NCBI GenBank assembly: GCA_039815185.1
Contig: JBCBZT010000080.1
Span: 1 to 25,605, forward strand
Length of the DNA: 25,605 nucleotides
Direction of reading: 5' to 3'
From: Cyanobacteria bacterium P01_A01_bin.123
Lineage (GTDB): Bacteria; Cyanobacteriota; Cyanobacteriia; Phormidesmidales; Phormidesmidaceae
Shown piece after piece: positions 168 through 25,605 of this stretch. The position numbers and the translations under genes are program-made. The notes below the pieces were generated by a model that saw only the letters and a list, made by a program, of their open reading frames with translations, made no database searches and was not told where the DNA came from. Position 1 is the first letter of the stretch. Each line of letters starts with the position of its first letter.

Positions 168-269
168 CTTTGCCCCTATCGTTTAAAGCACATCACAGTT
201 GTCTGATTCCAGTCATGGCGCTCCCAATCAAGCACAATAGGATTAACTAATGACTTTCCCCCTGTGGCG

Positions 270-875
270 ATGCCCATTCTAGAAGCCGACAAGATTTACC
301 TATTCAGTCAATTCGCTGAGTTTAACCAGCCGCCAGACGAAATCTTGGCTGAACTGGGTTATCAATGGACAATTCAACCCCTTTCCTTACCTAGCTACAG
401 CGTTCCTAATCTCTCCGAGTTCCAACACTCCTTAGAACGGCGTATTCAACTCACGCCCCTCACAAGTGAGCAGGCACGTCGAGAAACCTTGGTTTCTCCA
501 ATCTTGTTTCGAGTCGTTGAACAGTTGAATTTGCGCCTTAACATTGAGTATCCGGTTTCTGGTAAACGGAGCAGAGGCACCTTAGACTACCTAATTCGTG
601 GACAAAAAACTCTCCTAGTCATCGAAGCGAAACGTGACGATCTGACTCGTGGCTTTACTCAACTCGCGGTTGAAATGACTGAATTAGGAGACTGTTACGG
701 TGTGATTACCACAGGTAACATCTGGCAGTTTGCGCAACTGACGGGTACCTTGATTACCCAAGATCTGAATCTATATCGAGTGCCCACGGATTTATCAGAC
801 CTCATTAGCGCCCTACTTAGCATTCTCTCGAATCGCCAAGATATAGAGAACACTCACGAAATGATAATTTCGTAA
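270..875 (+). CDS. PD-(D/E)xK nuclease-fold protein (type I restriction HsdR N-terminal-like, common cyanobacterial hypothetical)
   Basis: Motifs SEQARRETLVSPIL, IEYP, GTLDYL...LLVIEAK, GFTQLAVEM, YGVITTGNIWQF. ATG at 270; GTG at 264 is an alternative start. Confidence 0.75.
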   Translation: MPILEADKIYLFSQFAEFNQPPDEILAELGYQWTIQPLSLPSYSVPNLSEFQHSLERRIQLTPLTSEQARRETLVSPILFRVVEQLNLRLNIEYPVSGKRSRGTLDYLIRGQKTLLVIEAKRDDLTRGFTQLAVEMTELGDCYGVITTGNIWQFAQLTGTLITQDLNLYRVPTDLSDLISALLSILSNRQDIENTHEMIIS

Positions 876-11682: not shown

Positions 11683-12369
11683 ATGCACTTATTGATTCCT
11701 GCAGCGGGAATGGGGCGACGCATGGGCAGCGATCGCAACAAAATTCTACTCAGCGTGTTGGCACGTCCGGTAATCGCGTGGACGCTGTTAGCCGCAGAAC
11801 AGGCTCAGCAAATCGACTGGATTGGGATCATCTGCCAACCCAGCGACCAAGCGGATTTAGAAGCTATCGCCCAACCGCTAAAGTTGACGAAACCCTTGAC
11901 GTTTATTACCGGAGGCGACACTCGCCAGGCATCCGTATACAACGGCTTGCAAGCGCTCCCCCCAGAAGCTAGCCACGTGTTGATTCACGATGGTGCTCGT
12001 TGTCTAGCCACGGCGGATCTCTTCAACCGCTGTGCCCTGTCGCTACAAAACTGTGCAGGTATTATTGCTGCGATCGCGGTCAAAGACACGATTAAAGTCG
12101 TGGACGACAGTGGCTTGATTGAGGCAACACCCGATCGCAGTCACCTATGGGCAGCTCAGACCCCACAGGGTTTTGACGTTGCGCTGCTCAAAGACTGCCA
12201 TGACAAAGGGCAACAGATGGGTTGGCAGGTGACCGATGATGCTGCCTTATTTGAAAAGTGTGATCTGCCAGTCAAAATTGTCCCTGGTGAAGAAACTAAC
12301 TTAAAAGTCACTACCCCAGTTGATTTGACCATTGCCGAATTTATCTTGCGTCAGCGAATTGAAGATTAA
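11683..12369 (+). CDS. ispD: 2-C-methyl-D-erythritol 4-phosphate cytidylyltransferase
   Basis: IPAAGMGRRMG..NK, GGDTRQASV, LIHDGAR, AQTPQGF, VTDDA, NLKVTTPVDL. Confidence 0.97.
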   Translation: MHLLIPAAGMGRRMGSDRNKILLSVLARPVIAWTLLAAEQAQQIDWIGIICQPSDQADLEAIAQPLKLTKPLTFITGGDTRQASVYNGLQALPPEASHVLIHDGARCLATADLFNRCALSLQNCAGIIAAIAVKDTIKVVDDSGLIEATPDRSHLWAAQTPQGFDVALLKDCHDKGQQMGWQVTDDAALFEKCDLPVKIVPGEETNLKVTTPVDLTIAEFILRQRIED

Positions 12370-20694: not shown

Positions 20695-21531
20695 CTAACA
20701 ACCCGCGTCTCCTTCAACTGGTATTTCAATTGATTCACCCGCACTCTCCAAATGCAGGGTGCCACTTTCGATGTCAACAACTTCGTAGCGTTGCTCACCC
20801 AGACTAACGGTGACTTCAGCCTGGGCCGCGCTGTCCAGGCTAGTAAAGCTTTGATTGATGGCCTGACCATAGAATTCCTCTCCAGAAGCAGCTGTTCTGC
20901 GGAACTGAGTCATGCGACCATTCAGCTTCATCCACATGGAGGTGGTTTCCAAGCCGTTAGAAAAGATGATTTGGTCGCTGCCAGCCCGGATAAGTGTCAT
21001 GCCACAGCCGCCGCCACTCACGGCAAATAGCTCATCAATGGTGTAGTTATCAATGCGAACTGTACCCATTTGGTCTGTGGGGGAGGCATCGGCGGTGTTA
21101 ATGAAATCGCCGCGAATCCAGCCCTCAGCGCCAGATTCGTCAAACTTGATGTAGTACCAGGTCAGCCCGTCAGTCCCCGAAGCTGCCTTTAACAGCTTCA
21201 CGGGATCCCCGACTAGACCATAACCTTTGGCAGTGGATTCAGCGGCGGGTTGCGATCGCAGATTGATTTGAGCATCCGCCTGCTGCGCCCTCAACTTTGC
21301 GGATTGGGGAGGATTAATGGGTGTCTCGGCTGGAGACGTTTGATGCTGAGGGGAGGATGTGGCTGAGTTTGACGTTTCTTCAGCTGTGGAAGCTGAACTG
21401 TCTAATGCATCTGAAGTCGTCTCTGGGGAGGACGATGTCTCTGAGTCAGCTTGCTCTCGTTGGCAACCAGCCAGGGTGCTAGTGCCCAAGACTAAACTTA
21501 GCGCGATCGCGACGTATAGTACCCGTTGCAT
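20695..21531 (-). CDS. Lipoprotein with bacterial SH3 domain and Ser/Thr-rich linker
   Basis: Lipobox LAGC; INLRSQP...GYGLVGDPV...WYYIKF...EGWIRGDFI. Confidence 0.85.
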   Translation of the reverse strand: MQRVLYVAIALSLVLGTSTLAGCQREQADSETSSSPETTSDALDSSASTAEETSNSATSSPQHQTSPAETPINPPQSAKLRAQQADAQINLRSQPAAESTAKGYGLVGDPVKLLKAASGTDGLTWYYIKFDESGAEGWIRGDFINTADASPTDQMGTVRIDNYTIDELFAVSGGGCGMTLIRAGSDQIIFSNGLETTSMWMKLNGRMTQFRRTAASGEEFYGQAINQSFTSLDSAAQAEVTVSLGEQRYEVVDIESGTLHLESAGESIEIPVEGDAGC

Positions 21532-21625
21532 CTTTCTACTGAGTAATCCACAGCCAAATCATAACTGTCGAATGAAATGGTTGAGTGCGAAAACAACATC
21601 TGAGAAGGCTGCTTGGCATATTGGC

Positions 21626-21883
21626 ATGGGGATTGCCCCGGCTGGGTTTGATAAAGCAAACATGGGACATCGTCACTTATGGGTCGATTTGGAAACCCTG
21701 CCAAATCTAAAGGAAGCCCTTGCCGAAACCGACCACGTTAAACATTTTGGCGGGGGTCAAACAGAAGCAACGTTGACCTTACCGCCCGGCGAGCATAGGT
21801 TGCAACTGTTATTGGCGAACTATGTGCATATTCCCCATGAGCCGCCTGTGATCTCTGAGCCCGTCACGATCACGGTGGAATAG
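21626..21883 (+). pseudogene. DUF4399 family protein, apparently 5'-truncated
   Basis: GMGIAPAG...GHRHLWVD...HFGGGQTE.TLTLPPGEHRLQLLLAN..HIPHEPPVIS. The usual signal peptide and N-terminal strands are missing; similarity begins abruptly near 21620. Confidence 0.65.
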
Positions 21884-21895
21884 TGTCAAGGGGGG

Positions 21896-22042
21896 TATCC
21901 TTAGATTGCAAGGGGATGCAATGGCGAAGCGTCACAGAGCGATCGCGTTGGGGGTTGCTGTCATAGCGTTGCGGGGTGCCGCAATGGCATTACGAGTTGA
22001 TGCAATGGTGTTGCAGGGGCATGCAATGGCATTGCGGGGGGA
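21896..22042. repeat. Degenerate 21-bp tandem repeat, about 7 units (consensus approx. TGCAATGGCRTTGCGGGGG)
   Basis: Units at 21917, 21938, 21959, 21980, 22001 and 22022 keep a 21-bp phase. Confidence 0.75.
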
Positions 22043-22101
22043 TGATACCCTTTTGCGTTGCAACGGCTACAGTTGAAAGCCCTTTGGGATGTGGCTTCTG
22101 C

Positions 22102-22132
22102 AATCCAAAATCGCAAATCTAAAATCCAAAAT
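22102..22132. repeat. STRR-type heptamer repeat (AATCCAA-like, x4)
   Basis: AATCCAA AATCGCA AATCTAA AATCCAA AAT. Confidence 0.8.
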
Positions 22133-22320
22133 TGGTAGTAATGCCACTGCATTAACGCTTCAGACCTGAATTACTTGTCACTCAACCAGTTGAGTCAGCC
22201 AGTAGACAATAGGGTAACGATGCAAGTTGGAATGCCGTTTTGATGCAATGAAGTTTACAGTTATACCTAAATCAAAGTCTTGCCTCCATAATTTTTCCGT
22301 GAGCCTAGGGGAGTGCCTCG

Positions 22321-25300
22321 GTGTCTATTCAGAAATCGGTTGAAGAGGTTCTCAAGTTTCTGCGCTGGATTGCGGAACTGATCGTCACTAAAAACTGGTT
22401 TGCGCTGCTGGGATTGCTCACTATCTCGATCTATTGCCTGTTTACGCCCCCCGAACTCAATGTCCTCAGTATTTTGGGTGGAGACCGAGGCGGCTGGTTG
22501 ACAAGACTGTTTGAACAAGACGGTGGTCTGCCTTCGTGGTATGTGCCGGGATTTGTTCTGATAGAGCTGGGGCTGATTGTCAGTGCGCTGGTGATTGCTG
22601 TGCGGTCTATGCCAAAGCCTGATGGAGGCAAGCTGGCGGATGTGGCGGAGCGGAAAGCGATCAAGGGATTGCGTCCGTTTAGCTCAGAAGACGCAGCCAT
22701 CTTTGCCAAGCTACAGCGGACGCAAAGTCTCAGGGATTGCCTGGAATCGATTACCAGCAAGACCTTTCGGTTTGGCATTTTGATGGGGGAATCGGGCTGT
22801 GGTAAAACGTCCTTTTTGCAGGCGGGGTTGTGGCCGCAGTTGAGTAAACCAGATGCGACCCACGCGGGCATTTATGTGCGTTTTAGCGATCAAGACCCTA
22901 TCTATACCATTGCTAAAGCGTTGGCGGAGCAGTTAGAGCTGCCGCTAGACTGGCTGATCCCCAGTGAATCGGCCCATACGCTGGTGGGGAATGGACGACC
23001 TGCGAAAACTTCACGCCCGGATCAGCAAACAGCCAGCCAGCCAGTCGGGCCTGCACTGTTTCTAACGCTACTGACTCAAGTGACTGACGCGAGCGATAAG
23101 CCGCTGGTGTTGCTGTTAGATCAGTTTGAGCAGTTTTTTGTGCATTACAAGCGGGCGGAGCAGCGGCAGCCGTTTGTGCAAGCATTAGCACAGTGGTATC
23201 GCAGTGCGGATCCCTTGCCTGTCAAGATTTTGGTCTCCATTCGGTCGGACTTGATGTATCAATTAGACGATCTGCATCAGGCGTTGGGCTATGCCTTGGG
23301 GCCACAGGAGGTGGTGCAGCTCAAGAAGTTTACGCCAGCGGAAGCCGCCTCGATTTTGGGCGTGATTGCGCGGGAAGAGCACTTGGCCTTTGAACGCAAA
23401 TTCGTGATTGATCTGGCGGATCAAGAATTGGCGAATCGAGAAGATGGGCTGATTTCCCCAGTCGATTTGCAAATTTTGGCCTGGATGATTGATCGCCAGA
23501 CTGGATCTGAGACTCGCGCTTTTAACCGTATTGCCTTTCAGAAATTTGGTGGGGTTGAGGGACTGCTACAGCGGTTTTTGGAGCGGACGCTTGAGGCCCG
23601 CGTGACCCAAGGCCAACGTCAGTCAGCGGTTAAGGTGTTGCTGGCGTTGACCGATTTAGACCGACAAGCACGGGCTGGTGTGTTAACCGTGCCTATGTTA
23701 GAAGGCAAGCTGAAGGATACGGTCAAGTCTGAGGAGGTGAAAGAAGCGGTTACCTGGTTAGCGCGGGGGGATGTGCGGTTGATTACACCCCAGGCGCAGG
23801 ATAGAGAGATGGGGTATGAGCTGGCTCATGAGCGGCTGATTCCGGCCTTGATGCAACAGGCTGGGAAAGAACTGTCTGCGGCTGACAAGGCCAATCAACT
23901 GCTAGATCGACGGGTGAATGAGTGGTTGGGGAATCAGCGCCAGTCTCGCTACTGGTTTGGGCTGTGGGAGCTGTGGCAAATTGAGCGGCAGCTTCCCTAT
24001 CTGGTGTGGGGGCCAAAGCGGCGGCAAAAGGAGCAGCTATTACGATTCAGTCGGCGGCGGGTCTACGGCATTGTCAGTGGTCTAACGCTGGTGGCAGTGA
24101 TTGCTGCAGGGGTTAGCGGCTGGTGGTTTTATACCCCGTCAGGCCAGATGCAGCAGGTGCGCTCCCAGCTGTTTAGCCATTTGGAGAATGCGGGTACCTT
24201 CAAATCAGCCCATGTGGCCTTGGCCTATGCCAAACATGGAGAGTGGGCCAAAGCTCAGACGATTCTGAAGGCTCATGTTGCCAAACAAGACCGCGATATG
24301 TCCTGGTTTATTCGTGAGGTTGCTGGTTTTCTGCCCTATGCCGATGACAGGCAACAGGGGTTGAGCCAACCATTAACAGCCTTAGCAGAAACGATTGAGG
24401 ACGACAGGTATAAATCGTTGGCGTTGCGTGCCATTGTCGCCGCCGCTGTCGAGTTAAACGACGATGCCCAGGCCGCGCAAGTGTTAGAAAAATCCCTCGC
24501 TGCCGCTGAAACGATTGAGGACAAAGGGTCTAAATCGTTGGCGTTGGGTGCCATTGTCGCCGCCTATGTCGAGTTGAACGACACCCCCCAGGCCGCGCAA
24601 GTGTTAGAAAAGGCCCTCGCCGCCGCTGAAACGATTGAGGACGACTGGCATAAATCGCGGGCGTTGGGTGCCATTGTCGCCGCCTATGTCGAGTTGAACG
24701 ACACCCCCCAGGCCGCGCAAGTGTTAGAAAAGGCCCTCGCCGCCGCTGAAACGATTGAGGACGACTGGCATAAATCGTTGGCGTTGCGTGCCATTGTCGC
24801 CGCCTATGTCGAGTTGAACGACACCCCCCAGGCCGCGCAAGTGTTAGAAAAGGCCCTCGCCGCCGCTGAAACGATTGAGGACGACGGGTCTAAATCGTGG
24901 GCGTTGCGTGCCATTGCCGCCGCCGCTGTCGCGTCAAACGACGATACCCATGCCGCGAAACTCCTAGAAAAATCCCTCGCCGCTGCTGAAACGATTGAGG
25001 ACGACGGGTCTAAATCGCCGGCGTTGGGTGCCATTGCCGCCGCCGCTGTCGAGTTGAACGACACCCCCCAGGCCGCGCAAGTGTTAGAAAAGGCCCTCGC
25101 CGCCGCAAAAACGATTGAGTACGACAGGTCTAAATCGGAGGCGTTGAGTACCATTGCCGCTGCCGCTGTCGCGTCAAACGACGATGCCCAGGCCGCGCAA
25201 GTGTTAGAAAAATCCCTCGCCGCCGCTGAAACGATTGAGGACGACGGGTCTAAATCGGAGGCGTTGAGTGCTATTGCCGCCGCCGCTGTCGAGTTAAACG

Positions 25301-25605
25301 ACACCCCCCAGGCCGCGCAAGTGTTAGAAAAGGCCCTCGCCGCCGCAAAAACGATTGAGGACGACAGGTCTAAATCGGAGGCGTTGGGTGCTATTGTCGC
25401 CGCCGCTGTCGAGTTAAACGACGATGCCCATGCCGCGCAAGTGTTAGAAAAGGCCCTCGCCGCCGCTGAAACGATTGAGTCCGATGGGTCTAAATCGTCG
25501 GCGTTGAGAACAATTGCCGCCGCCGCTGTCGCTTTGAACGACACCCCCCAGGCCGCGCAAGTGTTAGAAAAGACCCTCGCCGCCGCTGAAACGATTGAGG
25601 ACGAC
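22321..25605 (+). CDS. Membrane-anchored STAND (nSTAND1-like) NTPase with C-terminal 40-aa helical (TPR-like) tandem repeats; 3'-partial, not in ORF track
   Basis: GTG start with GGGGAG RBS; frame +1 open for 1095 codons to the window end. IKGLRPF..ED, Walker A GESGCGKTS (22786-22812), Walker B LVLLLDQFEQFF, sensor ILVSIRSD, ISPVDLQ, FGGVEG, YELAHERL. Hydrophobic helices at approx. aa 26-41, 73-94 and 581-604. Confidence 0.92.
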   Translation, partial: MSIQKSVEEVLKFLRWIAELIVTKNWFALLGLLTISIYCLFTPPELNVLSILGGDRGGWLTRLFEQDGGLPSWYVPGFVLIELGLIVSALVIAVRSMPKPDGGKLADVAERKAIKGLRPFSSEDAAIFAKLQRTQSLRDCLESITSKTFRFGILMGESGCGKTSFLQAGLWPQLSKPDATHAGIYVRFSDQDPIYTIAKALAEQLELPLDWLIPSESAHTLVGNGRPAKTSRPDQQTASQPVGPALFLTLLTQVTDASDKPLVLLLDQFEQFFVHYKRAEQRQPFVQALAQWYRSADPLPVKILVSIRSDLMYQLDDLHQALGYALGPQEVVQLKKFTPAEAASILGVIAREEHLAFERKFVIDLADQELANREDGLISPVDLQILAWMIDRQTGSETRAFNRIAFQKFGGVEGLLQRFLERTLEARVTQGQRQSAVKVLLALTDLDRQARAGVLTVPMLEGKLKDTVKSEEVKEAVTWLARGDVRLITPQAQDREMGYELAHERLIPALMQQAGKELSAADKANQLLDRRVNEWLGNQRQSRYWFGLWELWQIERQLPYLVWGPKRRQKEQLLRFSRRRVYGIVSGLTLVAVIAAGVSGWWFYTPSGQMQQVRSQLFSHLENAGTFKSAHVALAYAKHGEWAKAQTILKAHVAKQDRDMSWFIREVAGFLPYADDRQQGLSQPLTALAETIEDDRYKSLALRAIVAAAVELNDDAQAAQVLEKSLAAAETIEDKGSKSLALGAIVAAYVELNDTPQAAQVLEKALAAAETIEDDWHKSRALGAIVAAYVELNDTPQAAQVLEKALAAAETIEDDWHKSLALRAIVAAYVELNDTPQAAQVLEKALAAAETIEDDGSKSWALRAIAAAAVASNDDTHAAKLLEKSLAAAETIEDDGSKSPALGAIAAAAVELNDTPQAAQVLEKALAAAKTIEYDRSKSEALSTIAAAAVASNDDAQAAQVLEKSLAAAETIEDDGSKSEALSAIAAAAVELNDTPQAAQVLEKALAAAKTIEDDRSKSEALGAIVAAAVELNDDAHAAQVLEKALAAAETIESDGSKSSALRTIAAAAVALNDTPQAAQVLEKTLAAAETIEDD
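24385..25605 (+). repeat. Coding 120-bp tandem repeat, 10 complete units plus a partial 11th
   Basis: Consensus AETIEDDxxKSxALxAI(V/A)AAAVELNDTPQAAQVLEKALAA; exact 120-bp period with no indels. Confidence 0.97.

Follow-up and report, generated by a model that had tools for sequence, protein, structure and literature searches.

The window analysed here, the whole of a 25,605-nucleotide contig (C17) from the cyanobacterial metagenome bin P01_A01_bin.123, ends inside a plus-strand gene that very probably encodes a three-pass membrane protein of the nSTAND1 family, one of the signal transduction ATPases with numerous domains (STAND). From N- to C-terminus its parts are an N-terminal helix, a hairpin of two transmembrane helices (TM1 and TM2), an NTPase resembling those of nucleotide-binding leucine-rich repeat (NLR) proteins, a third transmembrane helix (TM3), an array of near-identical units similar to tetratricopeptide repeats (TPRs), and a terminal beta domain. 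We hold this architecture, together with a topology that places the ATPase in the cytoplasm and everything past TM3 outside it, with high confidence. The function is graded lower: sensing of a conflict type is somewhat favoured, and the explanation that we prefer, a one-gene sensor of a non-self ligand outside the cell that responds through clustering of its hairpins, is put forward tentatively. NLR-type switches are textbook intracellular sensors; a clade with near-identical, hypervariable repeats outside the cytoplasm and no enzymatic effector would illustrate how a switch of this type is turned to surveillance of the cell surface, with its own membrane helices perhaps carrying the response.

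The central module matches the Pfam nSTAND1 model PF20703 at E 6.1e-39, with 135.2 bits for a cut-off of 27.1, over positions 3-377 of the 379 in the model, and a genome search returned the same span. A preliminary description of the window, made from its letters alone, had named an nSTAND1-type NTPase with Walker A and B motifs, a sensor-1 arginine and an MHD-like AHE motif; all of these are present and are invariant in an alignment of 46 family members, on which the residue counts given below are also based (Table 1). In the AlphaFold2 (AF2) model of residues 1-640 (mean pLDDT 78.3), the YELAHE motif lies on a beta hairpin (residues 488-501). Model and alignment together give the domain order of STAND and NLR-like proteins, in which a helical domain comes after the NTPase and then a winged helix that bears a conserved histidine, and Foldseek matches the modelled NTPase to Cdc6/Orc1, CED-4, Apaf-1, plant resistosomes and MalT (E 1e-8 to 1e-5). 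A search by sequence found no solved nSTAND1 structure, its matches being to the TPR part only. The Pfam NACHT model PF05729 scores 19.6 bits, under its cut-off of 26.7, and NCBIfam and PADLOC-DB v2 return nothing beyond TPR-type matches, the latter giving the generic model PDLC01169 'TPR' at E 4.6e-6 and no other at E <= 1. The clade reaches only 135 bits on PF20703, as against 329-413 for the canonical paralogues of the same genome.

Three hydrophobic segments frame this module, as the preliminary description had it, and they are kept across the family. Kyte-Doolittle peaks in 19-residue windows, and the helices of the AF2 model, are listed in Table 1. Among 119 homologues analysed, TM1 and TM2 both reach peaks of at least 1.5 in 108 of the 111 with an intact N-terminus, and the TM3 peak is found in 114 of the 116 with a Walker A anchor, the two exceptions standing at 1.34 and 1.41. 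TM3 drifts in sequence (mean column identity 0.38) while its hydrophobicity is kept. The motifs on either side of it are better conserved: S577 is found in 46 of 46 sequences, R579 in 32, R580 in 35 and Y582 in 31 before the helix, and T605 in 33, P606 in 36, G608 in 40 and Q609 in 45 after it. Within the hairpin, W26 (45/46), A89 (46/46) and A93 (45/46) stand out, and the middle of TM1 (column of residue 34) is acidic in roughly half of the 46 sequences (D in 22, E in 2), where the window protein has T. The N-terminal helix, residues 2-22, can be described as amphipathic. No family for this helix and the 2TM hairpin was found in Pfam, NCBIfam or PADLOC, and ESM Atlas gave no usable match for residues 1-112. 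An enzymatic effector domain, which the preliminary description had likewise failed to see, was not found with Pfam, NCBIfam or PADLOC.

With a cytoplasmic ATPase, two transmembrane helices before it and one after it, the N-terminus should be inside, the 30-residue loop between TM1 and TM2 outside, and all that follows TM3 outside as well. An NTPase on the outer side is ruled out, there being no ATP there. The charge distribution agrees, with eight K/R in residues 560-582 (23 residues) and three in residues 607-640 (34 residues). The earlier proposal of cytoplasmic NTPase and external repeats, made on the positive-inside rule, is supported on broader grounds, namely the persistence of TM3, the recurrence of the end domain, whose free-standing relatives are for the most part lipoproteins and which is also met in membrane-anchored and secreted proteins, and a conserved cysteine pair within that domain. 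The outer compartment may be the periplasm or the thylakoid lumen. As a separate observation, the basic stretch S-x-R-R-hydrophobic-Y ahead of TM3 (24049-24066) is loosely twin-arginine-like. The consensus for twin-arginine translocation (Tat) is an S/T-R-R-x-F-L-K-type motif followed by a mildly hydrophobic helix, and the spacing here differs from it; that the large C-terminal part might be exported folded by Tat is an idea only.

The reading frame that the preliminary description had picked out, and that codes for 1095 residues from a GTG start, is present as described; the contig breaks off within a tandem repeat of 120 bp, which leaves the 3' end open. In the whole genome (8.09 Mb in 133 contigs, completeness 99.99, contamination 5.99) this repeat recurs only at the start of the contig C92, in its first 649 bases. 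There an open frame of 468 residues (C92:2-1408) takes up the array with five further full repeats and a last, degenerate unit, after which come a helical cap and a C-terminal domain of about 170 residues. A complete orthologue of 982 residues, P0003 (82% identical; 81-82% identity over residues 1-640), has the same GTG start with a comparable Shine-Dalgarno-like stretch ahead of it. Its residues 1-769 align to C17 and its residues 685-965 to C92, and since it aligns to both we treat the two pieces as one gene. Joined, the two pieces give a protein of no fewer than 1563 residues with 15 or more full repeats, further repeats having been lost in the gap. No bridge across the gap was found; the probable source-run contigs on 24200-25605 are unitigs of 50-80 bases within the array. 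A pseudogene or an assembly artefact is ruled out, the frame being open throughout and the orthologue intact. The contig C92 also carries psaC, which confirms the cyanobacterial phylum.

The helical array that had been noticed after the transmembrane helix has thus grown to at least 15 near-identical TPR-like units of 40 residues. In the window, Tandem Repeats Finder (TRF) reports a period of 120, 10.1 copies and 87% matches, and Pfam TPR_12 reaches 70 bits over eight stretches, so that the HMMER searches recover both the nSTAND1 and the TPR assignments. The 15 units on the two contigs have a mean pairwise amino-acid identity of 0.78 and a net charge of -64. Their variation is concentrated at repeat positions 5, 7, 8, 11, 14, 26, 27 and 36, of which 7, 8, 11 and 14 are spaced i, i+1, i+4 and i+7, that is, along one face of a helix. 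In six other homologues with at least seven well-matched repeats (internal identity 0.79-0.87) variability is highest at positions 11, 7, 8, 14, 15 and 5, a comparison that serves as a partial control for the choice of sites. Repeat number shifts fast, from about two in the 82% orthologue to at least 15 here, with many in others. Repeats of high internal conservation (HIC) are defined by a similarity of about 0.70 or more, and the array lies above this value at 0.78 for amino acids and 87% for DNA, these being plain identities and not the T-REKS Psim. Four homologues, forming one nested sub-clade, have an FGE-sulfatase domain where the repeats would otherwise follow TM3.

The end domain is a beta sandwich of about 170 residues in its AF2 model (pLDDT 87.7), with the motif SPDxxC...DWWE...RAH...PxPxxC, and has no model in Pfam or NCBIfam. 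It nevertheless matches 435 representative proteins at E <= 0.001 with phmmer (for example P0138, E 6.2e-19). We examined the best 139 of these 435, apart from those already fetched. Ten are longer than 450 residues; among the 129 of 450 residues or fewer, 48 pass a strict lipobox heuristic, 32 have another hydrophobic N-terminus (many with a visible lipobox), nine are fragments and 40 show neither signal. Judged by eye, these 40 include about 13 pieces of STAND-TPR proteins and about 14 proteins whose N-terminus looks cytoplasmic and anti-sigma-like. Two free-standing copies occur in the present genome, at C119 ~11776-12117 (L052) and C127 ~24165-24521, with 29% and 36% identity, and the former has a lipoprotein-type signal ending in LTLTSC. 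Of the 119 homologues, 54 end with the beta domain, many of the others being cut by contig ends or stopping after the cap. In these 54 STAND-fused copies the SPDxxC cysteine is present in 52 and the C-terminal cysteine in 44, the other ten being alignment gaps. Among the conserved residues, C41, W47, E49, R60, H67, R91, H93 and the C-terminal cysteine are present here, and W48, Q71 and P72 are replaced; to judge from the conserved H, C, W, E and R residues, the domain may bind a metal or small ligand.

No specific relative of this fold can be named, since structural comparisons give weak or generic matches. Foldseek against the PDB returned nothing at E <= 0.001 (the best being ASF1, E 2.6e-3, and superoxide reductase, E 2.9e-3), the highest Z from VIA-align over 48,161 chains was 7.8, all matches being generic Ig/FnIII-type sandwiches, and ESM Atlas returned only 'hypothetical protein' clusters. 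The end domain was also seen in two other settings. It terminates proteins of about 270-360 residues with the anti-sigma-like N-terminus LSRxYR...PP..LDA.IL (P0208, P0210, P0218, P0226-P0228 and others), and it stands at the end of P0255, a secreted-type protein of 2194 residues with a dockerin-like segment.

A search with residues 1-640 returned 504 proteins at E <= 0.001. Among the best 120 of these, the named matches are nearly all cyanobacterial (Leptolyngbya, Acaryochloris, Rivularia, Xenococcus, Spirulina and others), most with 96-100% query coverage and 46-81% identity. The present clade is single-copy in the genome and lies on a long branch away from the canonical nSTAND1 genes in a FastTree phylogeny, which was built from every second homologue and the four FGE-sulfatase members and carries no support values. 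Its distribution is patchy. Five of 30 relatives, four of them among the 18 of the same family, have a match at E <= 1e-50, one with at least three copies, and the one other sampled genome of the same genus (85% complete) has none at that threshold. Across the phylum, matches at E <= 1e-40 were found in 2 of 300 other genomes, sampled evenly and with four candidates scored for each. The 82% orthologue lies among unrelated genes without any synteny, and four other loci share no neighbours. With this patchy spread, these unrelated surroundings and no shared neighbours, the gene is an accessory one that changes position and has no fixed partner.

Six canonical nSTAND1 paralogues of the genome offer a point of comparison. 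Five of them carry a caspase domain at the N-terminus and a sensor at the C-terminus (CHASE2, pentapeptide repeats or WD40), and the present protein is 22-28% identical to the caspase-nSTAND1 paralogues. One of the genome's nSTAND1 genes, L044 (C39:176811-180137, minus strand), encodes a Peptidase_C14 caspase, nSTAND1 and CHASE2, which makes it, after the present protein, the second in this genome to combine nSTAND1 with an outward-facing sensor domain embedded in the membrane. Two further genes, L050 (C1:47056-51966) and L051 (C1:40812-43760), are neighbours and each have about 540 unassigned residues before a divergent nSTAND1 (116-117 bits); one of the two has WD40 propellers after it.

On the explanation that we prefer, an outside ligand would bind the variable face of the repeats, and possibly the end domain too. 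TM3 and its conserved flanking motifs would relay the change to the ATPase, which would oligomerise in an ATP-driven manner as in other STAND proteins, and the clustered N-terminal hairpins would damage or perturb the membrane. The hairpin is read as a membrane effector because it sits in the slot where the nSTAND1 paralogues of the genome carry a caspase; this role is possible, with the balance of probability against it, and the hairpin could be a plain membrane anchor. The logic of a STAND switch coupled to a repeat sensor, already put forward in the preliminary description, fits the hypervariable positions, the patchy distribution and the sub-clade in which the sensor has been swapped for an FGE-sulfatase domain. 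An immune reading is plausible. In its most specific form, which we consider rather unlikely, the protein would be a single-gene 'inside-out NLR', whose hypervariable periplasmic repeats detect surface proteins of phages or foreign cells before or during entry, whose ATPase switch oligomerises on the cytoplasmic side and whose pre-inserted hairpins form a resistosome-like pore that kills or arrests the cell. If true, the protein would combine Toll-like receptor topology with the engine of an NLR in a single immune receptor and would have no separate effector.

Several points weigh against the preferred explanation. The neighbours on both contigs are housekeeping or signalling genes and none is a defence gene, and the protein itself draws only the generic TPR model from PADLOC. 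The acidic array (net -64 over 15 units) could point to binding of cations or polymers over recognition of proteins, and this acidity is not obvious in homologues such as P0047. The ratio of non-synonymous to synonymous substitution rates (dN/dS), which is 3.9 at the variable positions, 0.32 elsewhere and 0.76 overall, is inflated at the former because the sites were picked by their own amino-acid variability. The count for the phylum scored only four candidates per genome. The join of C17 and C92 is not read through; it is drawn from the orthologue and from a repeat unique to the two contig ends, and the genome is a metagenome bin with 6% contamination.

The alternative that survives best, possible though on the whole doubtful, is an envelope-signalling switch: the repeats and beta domain outside would keep watch over a metal or an endogenous component of the envelope, the ATPase would serve cytoplasmic partners as timer or scaffold, and the hairpin would only anchor the protein. 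The location among housekeeping and signalling genes with no defence context favours it, as do the strongly acidic array and the end domain, which keeps H102, H128 and two cysteines, has weak fold matches to superoxide reductase and SoxZ, and might bind a metal or small ligand. Against it stand the patchy distribution with varying copy number and the lack of conserved neighbours or partners; moreover, hypervariability at set positions and fast change in repeat number fit changing ligands better than a fixed endogenous one. It is less probable still that the protein is an outward sensor for a separate effector encoded elsewhere, for example caspase-like or TIR, that is recruited to the N-terminal helix or to the oligomerised ATPase. 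Conservation of that helix and the many caspase-nSTAND1 genes of the genome speak for this arrangement, as do several nSTAND1+TM+TPR genes that, in the supplementary data of PMC8195603, lie beside TIR or TIR+DrHyd or are fused to trypsin. An effector gene adjoins neither the present gene nor its counterparts in the four other loci, however, and Pfam and NCBIfam show no effector-associated adaptor domain. Very improbable is a TM3 that does not cross the membrane and leaves the repeats and end domain in the cytoplasm, the arrangement of ordinary NLR-like proteins: a cytoplasmic location is usual for the TPR arrays of STAND proteins and TM3 is less hydropathic than TM2, but the TM3 peak persists while the sequence drifts, which is typical of membrane anchors, strong positive charge lies ahead of it, and the end domain, with its conserved cysteine pair, is otherwise found behind lipoprotein signals and membrane anchors.

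The preferred explanation has to be set against systems already described. nSTAND1 was named by Kaur et al. 2021 (PMC8195603), and the supplementary file 1 of that paper (source data of its Fig. 2) contains the string 'nSTAND1+TM' 461 times and the string 'nSTAND1+TM+TPR' 23 times. Genes of the nSTAND1+TM type in this file often lie beside TIR or TIR+DrHyd, or are fused to trypsin or caspase. The entries with TPRs or a beta-propeller share with the present protein the PF20703 family and a single transmembrane helix between NTPase and repeats, the place taken here by TM3. They differ in that they mostly lack an N-terminal transmembrane helix and carry or neighbour TIR, trypsin or caspase effectors, where the present protein has its 2TM front. 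The string 'TM+TM+nSTAND1' is absent from the file, 'TM+nSTAND1+TM' occurs in one Chloroflexi entry (SIG+TM+nSTAND1+TM+BetaPropeller), and the main-text passages of the paper on which we draw do not discuss the layout. Kibby et al. (bioRxiv 10.1101/2022.07.19.500537) propose that a subset of bNACHT proteins, those with transmembrane regions, responds to signals from within the membrane or from the periplasm, and they regard FGS domains and repeats as sensors of an antigen-receptor type. The receptor design that the preliminary description called hidden is therefore neither hidden nor new in kind. bNACHT proteins are NLR-related STAND proteins like the present one, but belong to a different STAND clade, PF05729 being below its cut-off here, and in the portions of that preprint used here no tested bNACHT is named with the present layout.

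Other likenesses concern the parts. Proteins with the order caspase, nSTAND1 and sensor (EACC1-type; PMC7159879, PMC8195603) share the NTPase family and the succession of effector, NTPase and variable sensor, but have a caspase in the N-terminal slot that the 2TM hairpin occupies here. Repeats of the HIC type have been described together with ATPase domains in NLR-like bacterial proteins, cyanobacterial ones included, and nSTAND1 and 'TMH' appear in a figure legend of the same paper (PMC13449251). The fungal HIC-repeat NLRs that it treats (HET-E/HNWD) likewise have near-identical repeats with few hypervariable positions and changing repeat number; they are cytosolic and combine WD40, ANK or TPR with NACHT or NB-ARC, whereas the array of the present protein has a predicted location beyond the cytoplasm. 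Plant CC-NLR resistosomes (ZAR1, Sr35) are matched by the NTPase fold (6j5t, 7xc2, 9h2l) at 11-13% identity. Their N-terminal helices form a membrane channel after oligomerisation. Plant NLRs are, however, soluble until activated and have cytosolic ligands, while the helices of the present protein are predicted to be embedded in the membrane from the start. Avs proteins are cytoplasmic, bind phage proteins in the cytoplasm and use nuclease and similar effectors, and no PADLOC Avs model matches the present protein at E <= 1. Avs/AVAST systems, as outlined in PMC10907252, have a STAND NTPase with C-terminal TPR-like sensors, in common with the present protein, and N-terminal effectors.

Full-text searches of a limited library found no paper describing the 2TM clade or the end domain. 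The 2TM front end, the end domain and the present cyanobacterial clade were thus not found catalogued, the general layout being catalogued already, and the gain is accordingly a defined, testable sub-family and not a new principle. The family is a large one, its 504 database matches being mostly from filamentous or benthic cyanobacteria, and the end domain is an unnamed and widespread lipoprotein domain (435 representative clusters). As to the preliminary description as a whole, its observation has been confirmed and extended, and its argument on topology strengthened.

Table 1. Features of the nSTAND1 membrane protein gene in the window (aa, residue numbers of the encoded protein)
Feature	Position	Strand	Basis and remarks
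Shine-Dalgarno-like AGGGGAG	22307..22313	+	Read from sequence; 7 nt before GTG
5' part of gene (aa 1-1095)	22321..25605	+	GTG start; 3' end open at contig end
N-terminal helix (aa 2-22), predicted cytoplasmic	22324..22386	+	AF2 helix 2-22; conserved F13, W16, A18, L20, I21
TM1 (aa 25-42), begins with conserved (R/K)-N-W-F	22393..22446	+	Kyte-Doolittle peak 1.57 (aa 26-44); AF2 helix 26-41
TM2 (aa 74-95), small-xxx-small motif	22540..22605	+	Kyte-Doolittle peak 2.38 (aa 75-93); AF2 helix 74-96
nSTAND1 NTPase module: P-loop domain, helical domain, winged helix (aa 115-541)	22663..23943	+	Pfam PF20703
Walker A GESGCGKTS (aa 156-164)	22786..22812	+	G156, G159, G161, K162, S164 invariant
Walker B LLLDQFEQ (aa 263-270)	23107..23130	+	D267, Q268, F269, E270, Q271 invariant
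Sensor-1 arginine R308	23242..23244	+	Invariant in 46 sequences
YELAHE, MHD-like histidine motif at winged-helix end (aa 499-504)	23815..23832	+	Y499, E500, L501, A502, H503 invariant
Basic juxtamembrane motif S-x-R-R-hydrophobic-Y (aa 577-582), predicted cytoplasmic side of TM3	24049..24066	+	Column counts
TM3 (aa 581-603), predicted N-in/C-out signal-anchor	24061..24129	+	Kyte-Doolittle peak 2.01 (aa 581-599); AF2 helix 567-604
Motif T-P-x-G-Q-(I/M)-Q (aa 605-611), right after TM3, predicted outer side	24133..24153	+	Column counts
Helical N-cap between TM3 and array (aa 612-689)	24154..24387	+	AF2 helices 606-621, 626-639
Ten full 40-aa TPR-like repeats and start of an eleventh (aa 690-1095)	24388..25605	+	TRF; Pfam TPR_12, TPR_7

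The neighbours of the gene were read on both contigs, the extension that had been suggested at the outset having led onto C92. Upstream in the window lie genes for a DUF4399 protein, an SH3 lipoprotein, a major facilitator superfamily (MFS) transporter and a large PAS/GAF/GGDEF/EAL protein; on C92 the neighbours are transketolase, fabF, acpP and psaC. PADLOC, run on 13 neighbouring proteins, found nothing near the gene, which is not in a defence island. As to the neighbourhood check proposed in the preliminary description, the gene is patchy among relatives, a defence-island context is missing and the only PADLOC model is the generic TPR one.

The DUF4399 gene (21359-21883, plus strand) lies just upstream, and its longest ORF (open reading frame) overlaps the start of the divergent SH3_3 lipoprotein gene (20695-21531, minus strand) by about 170 bases, which makes a later ATG the probable true start of DUF4399. 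No promoter or terminator came to light when 21500-22500 was scanned. The spacer of 437 bp that precedes the nSTAND1 gene holds, at 21916-22250 on the plus strand, all four copies of ATGCAATG in the 25.6-kb window, with a near copy, CGCAATGG, at ~21980; ATGCAATG was not found upstream of the 82% orthologue. Towards the other end of the window, 21 kb from the gene, a protein of 203 residues without a Pfam match (264-875, plus strand) matches the PADLOC model PD_DExK ('CAS-associated') at E 2.3e-24.

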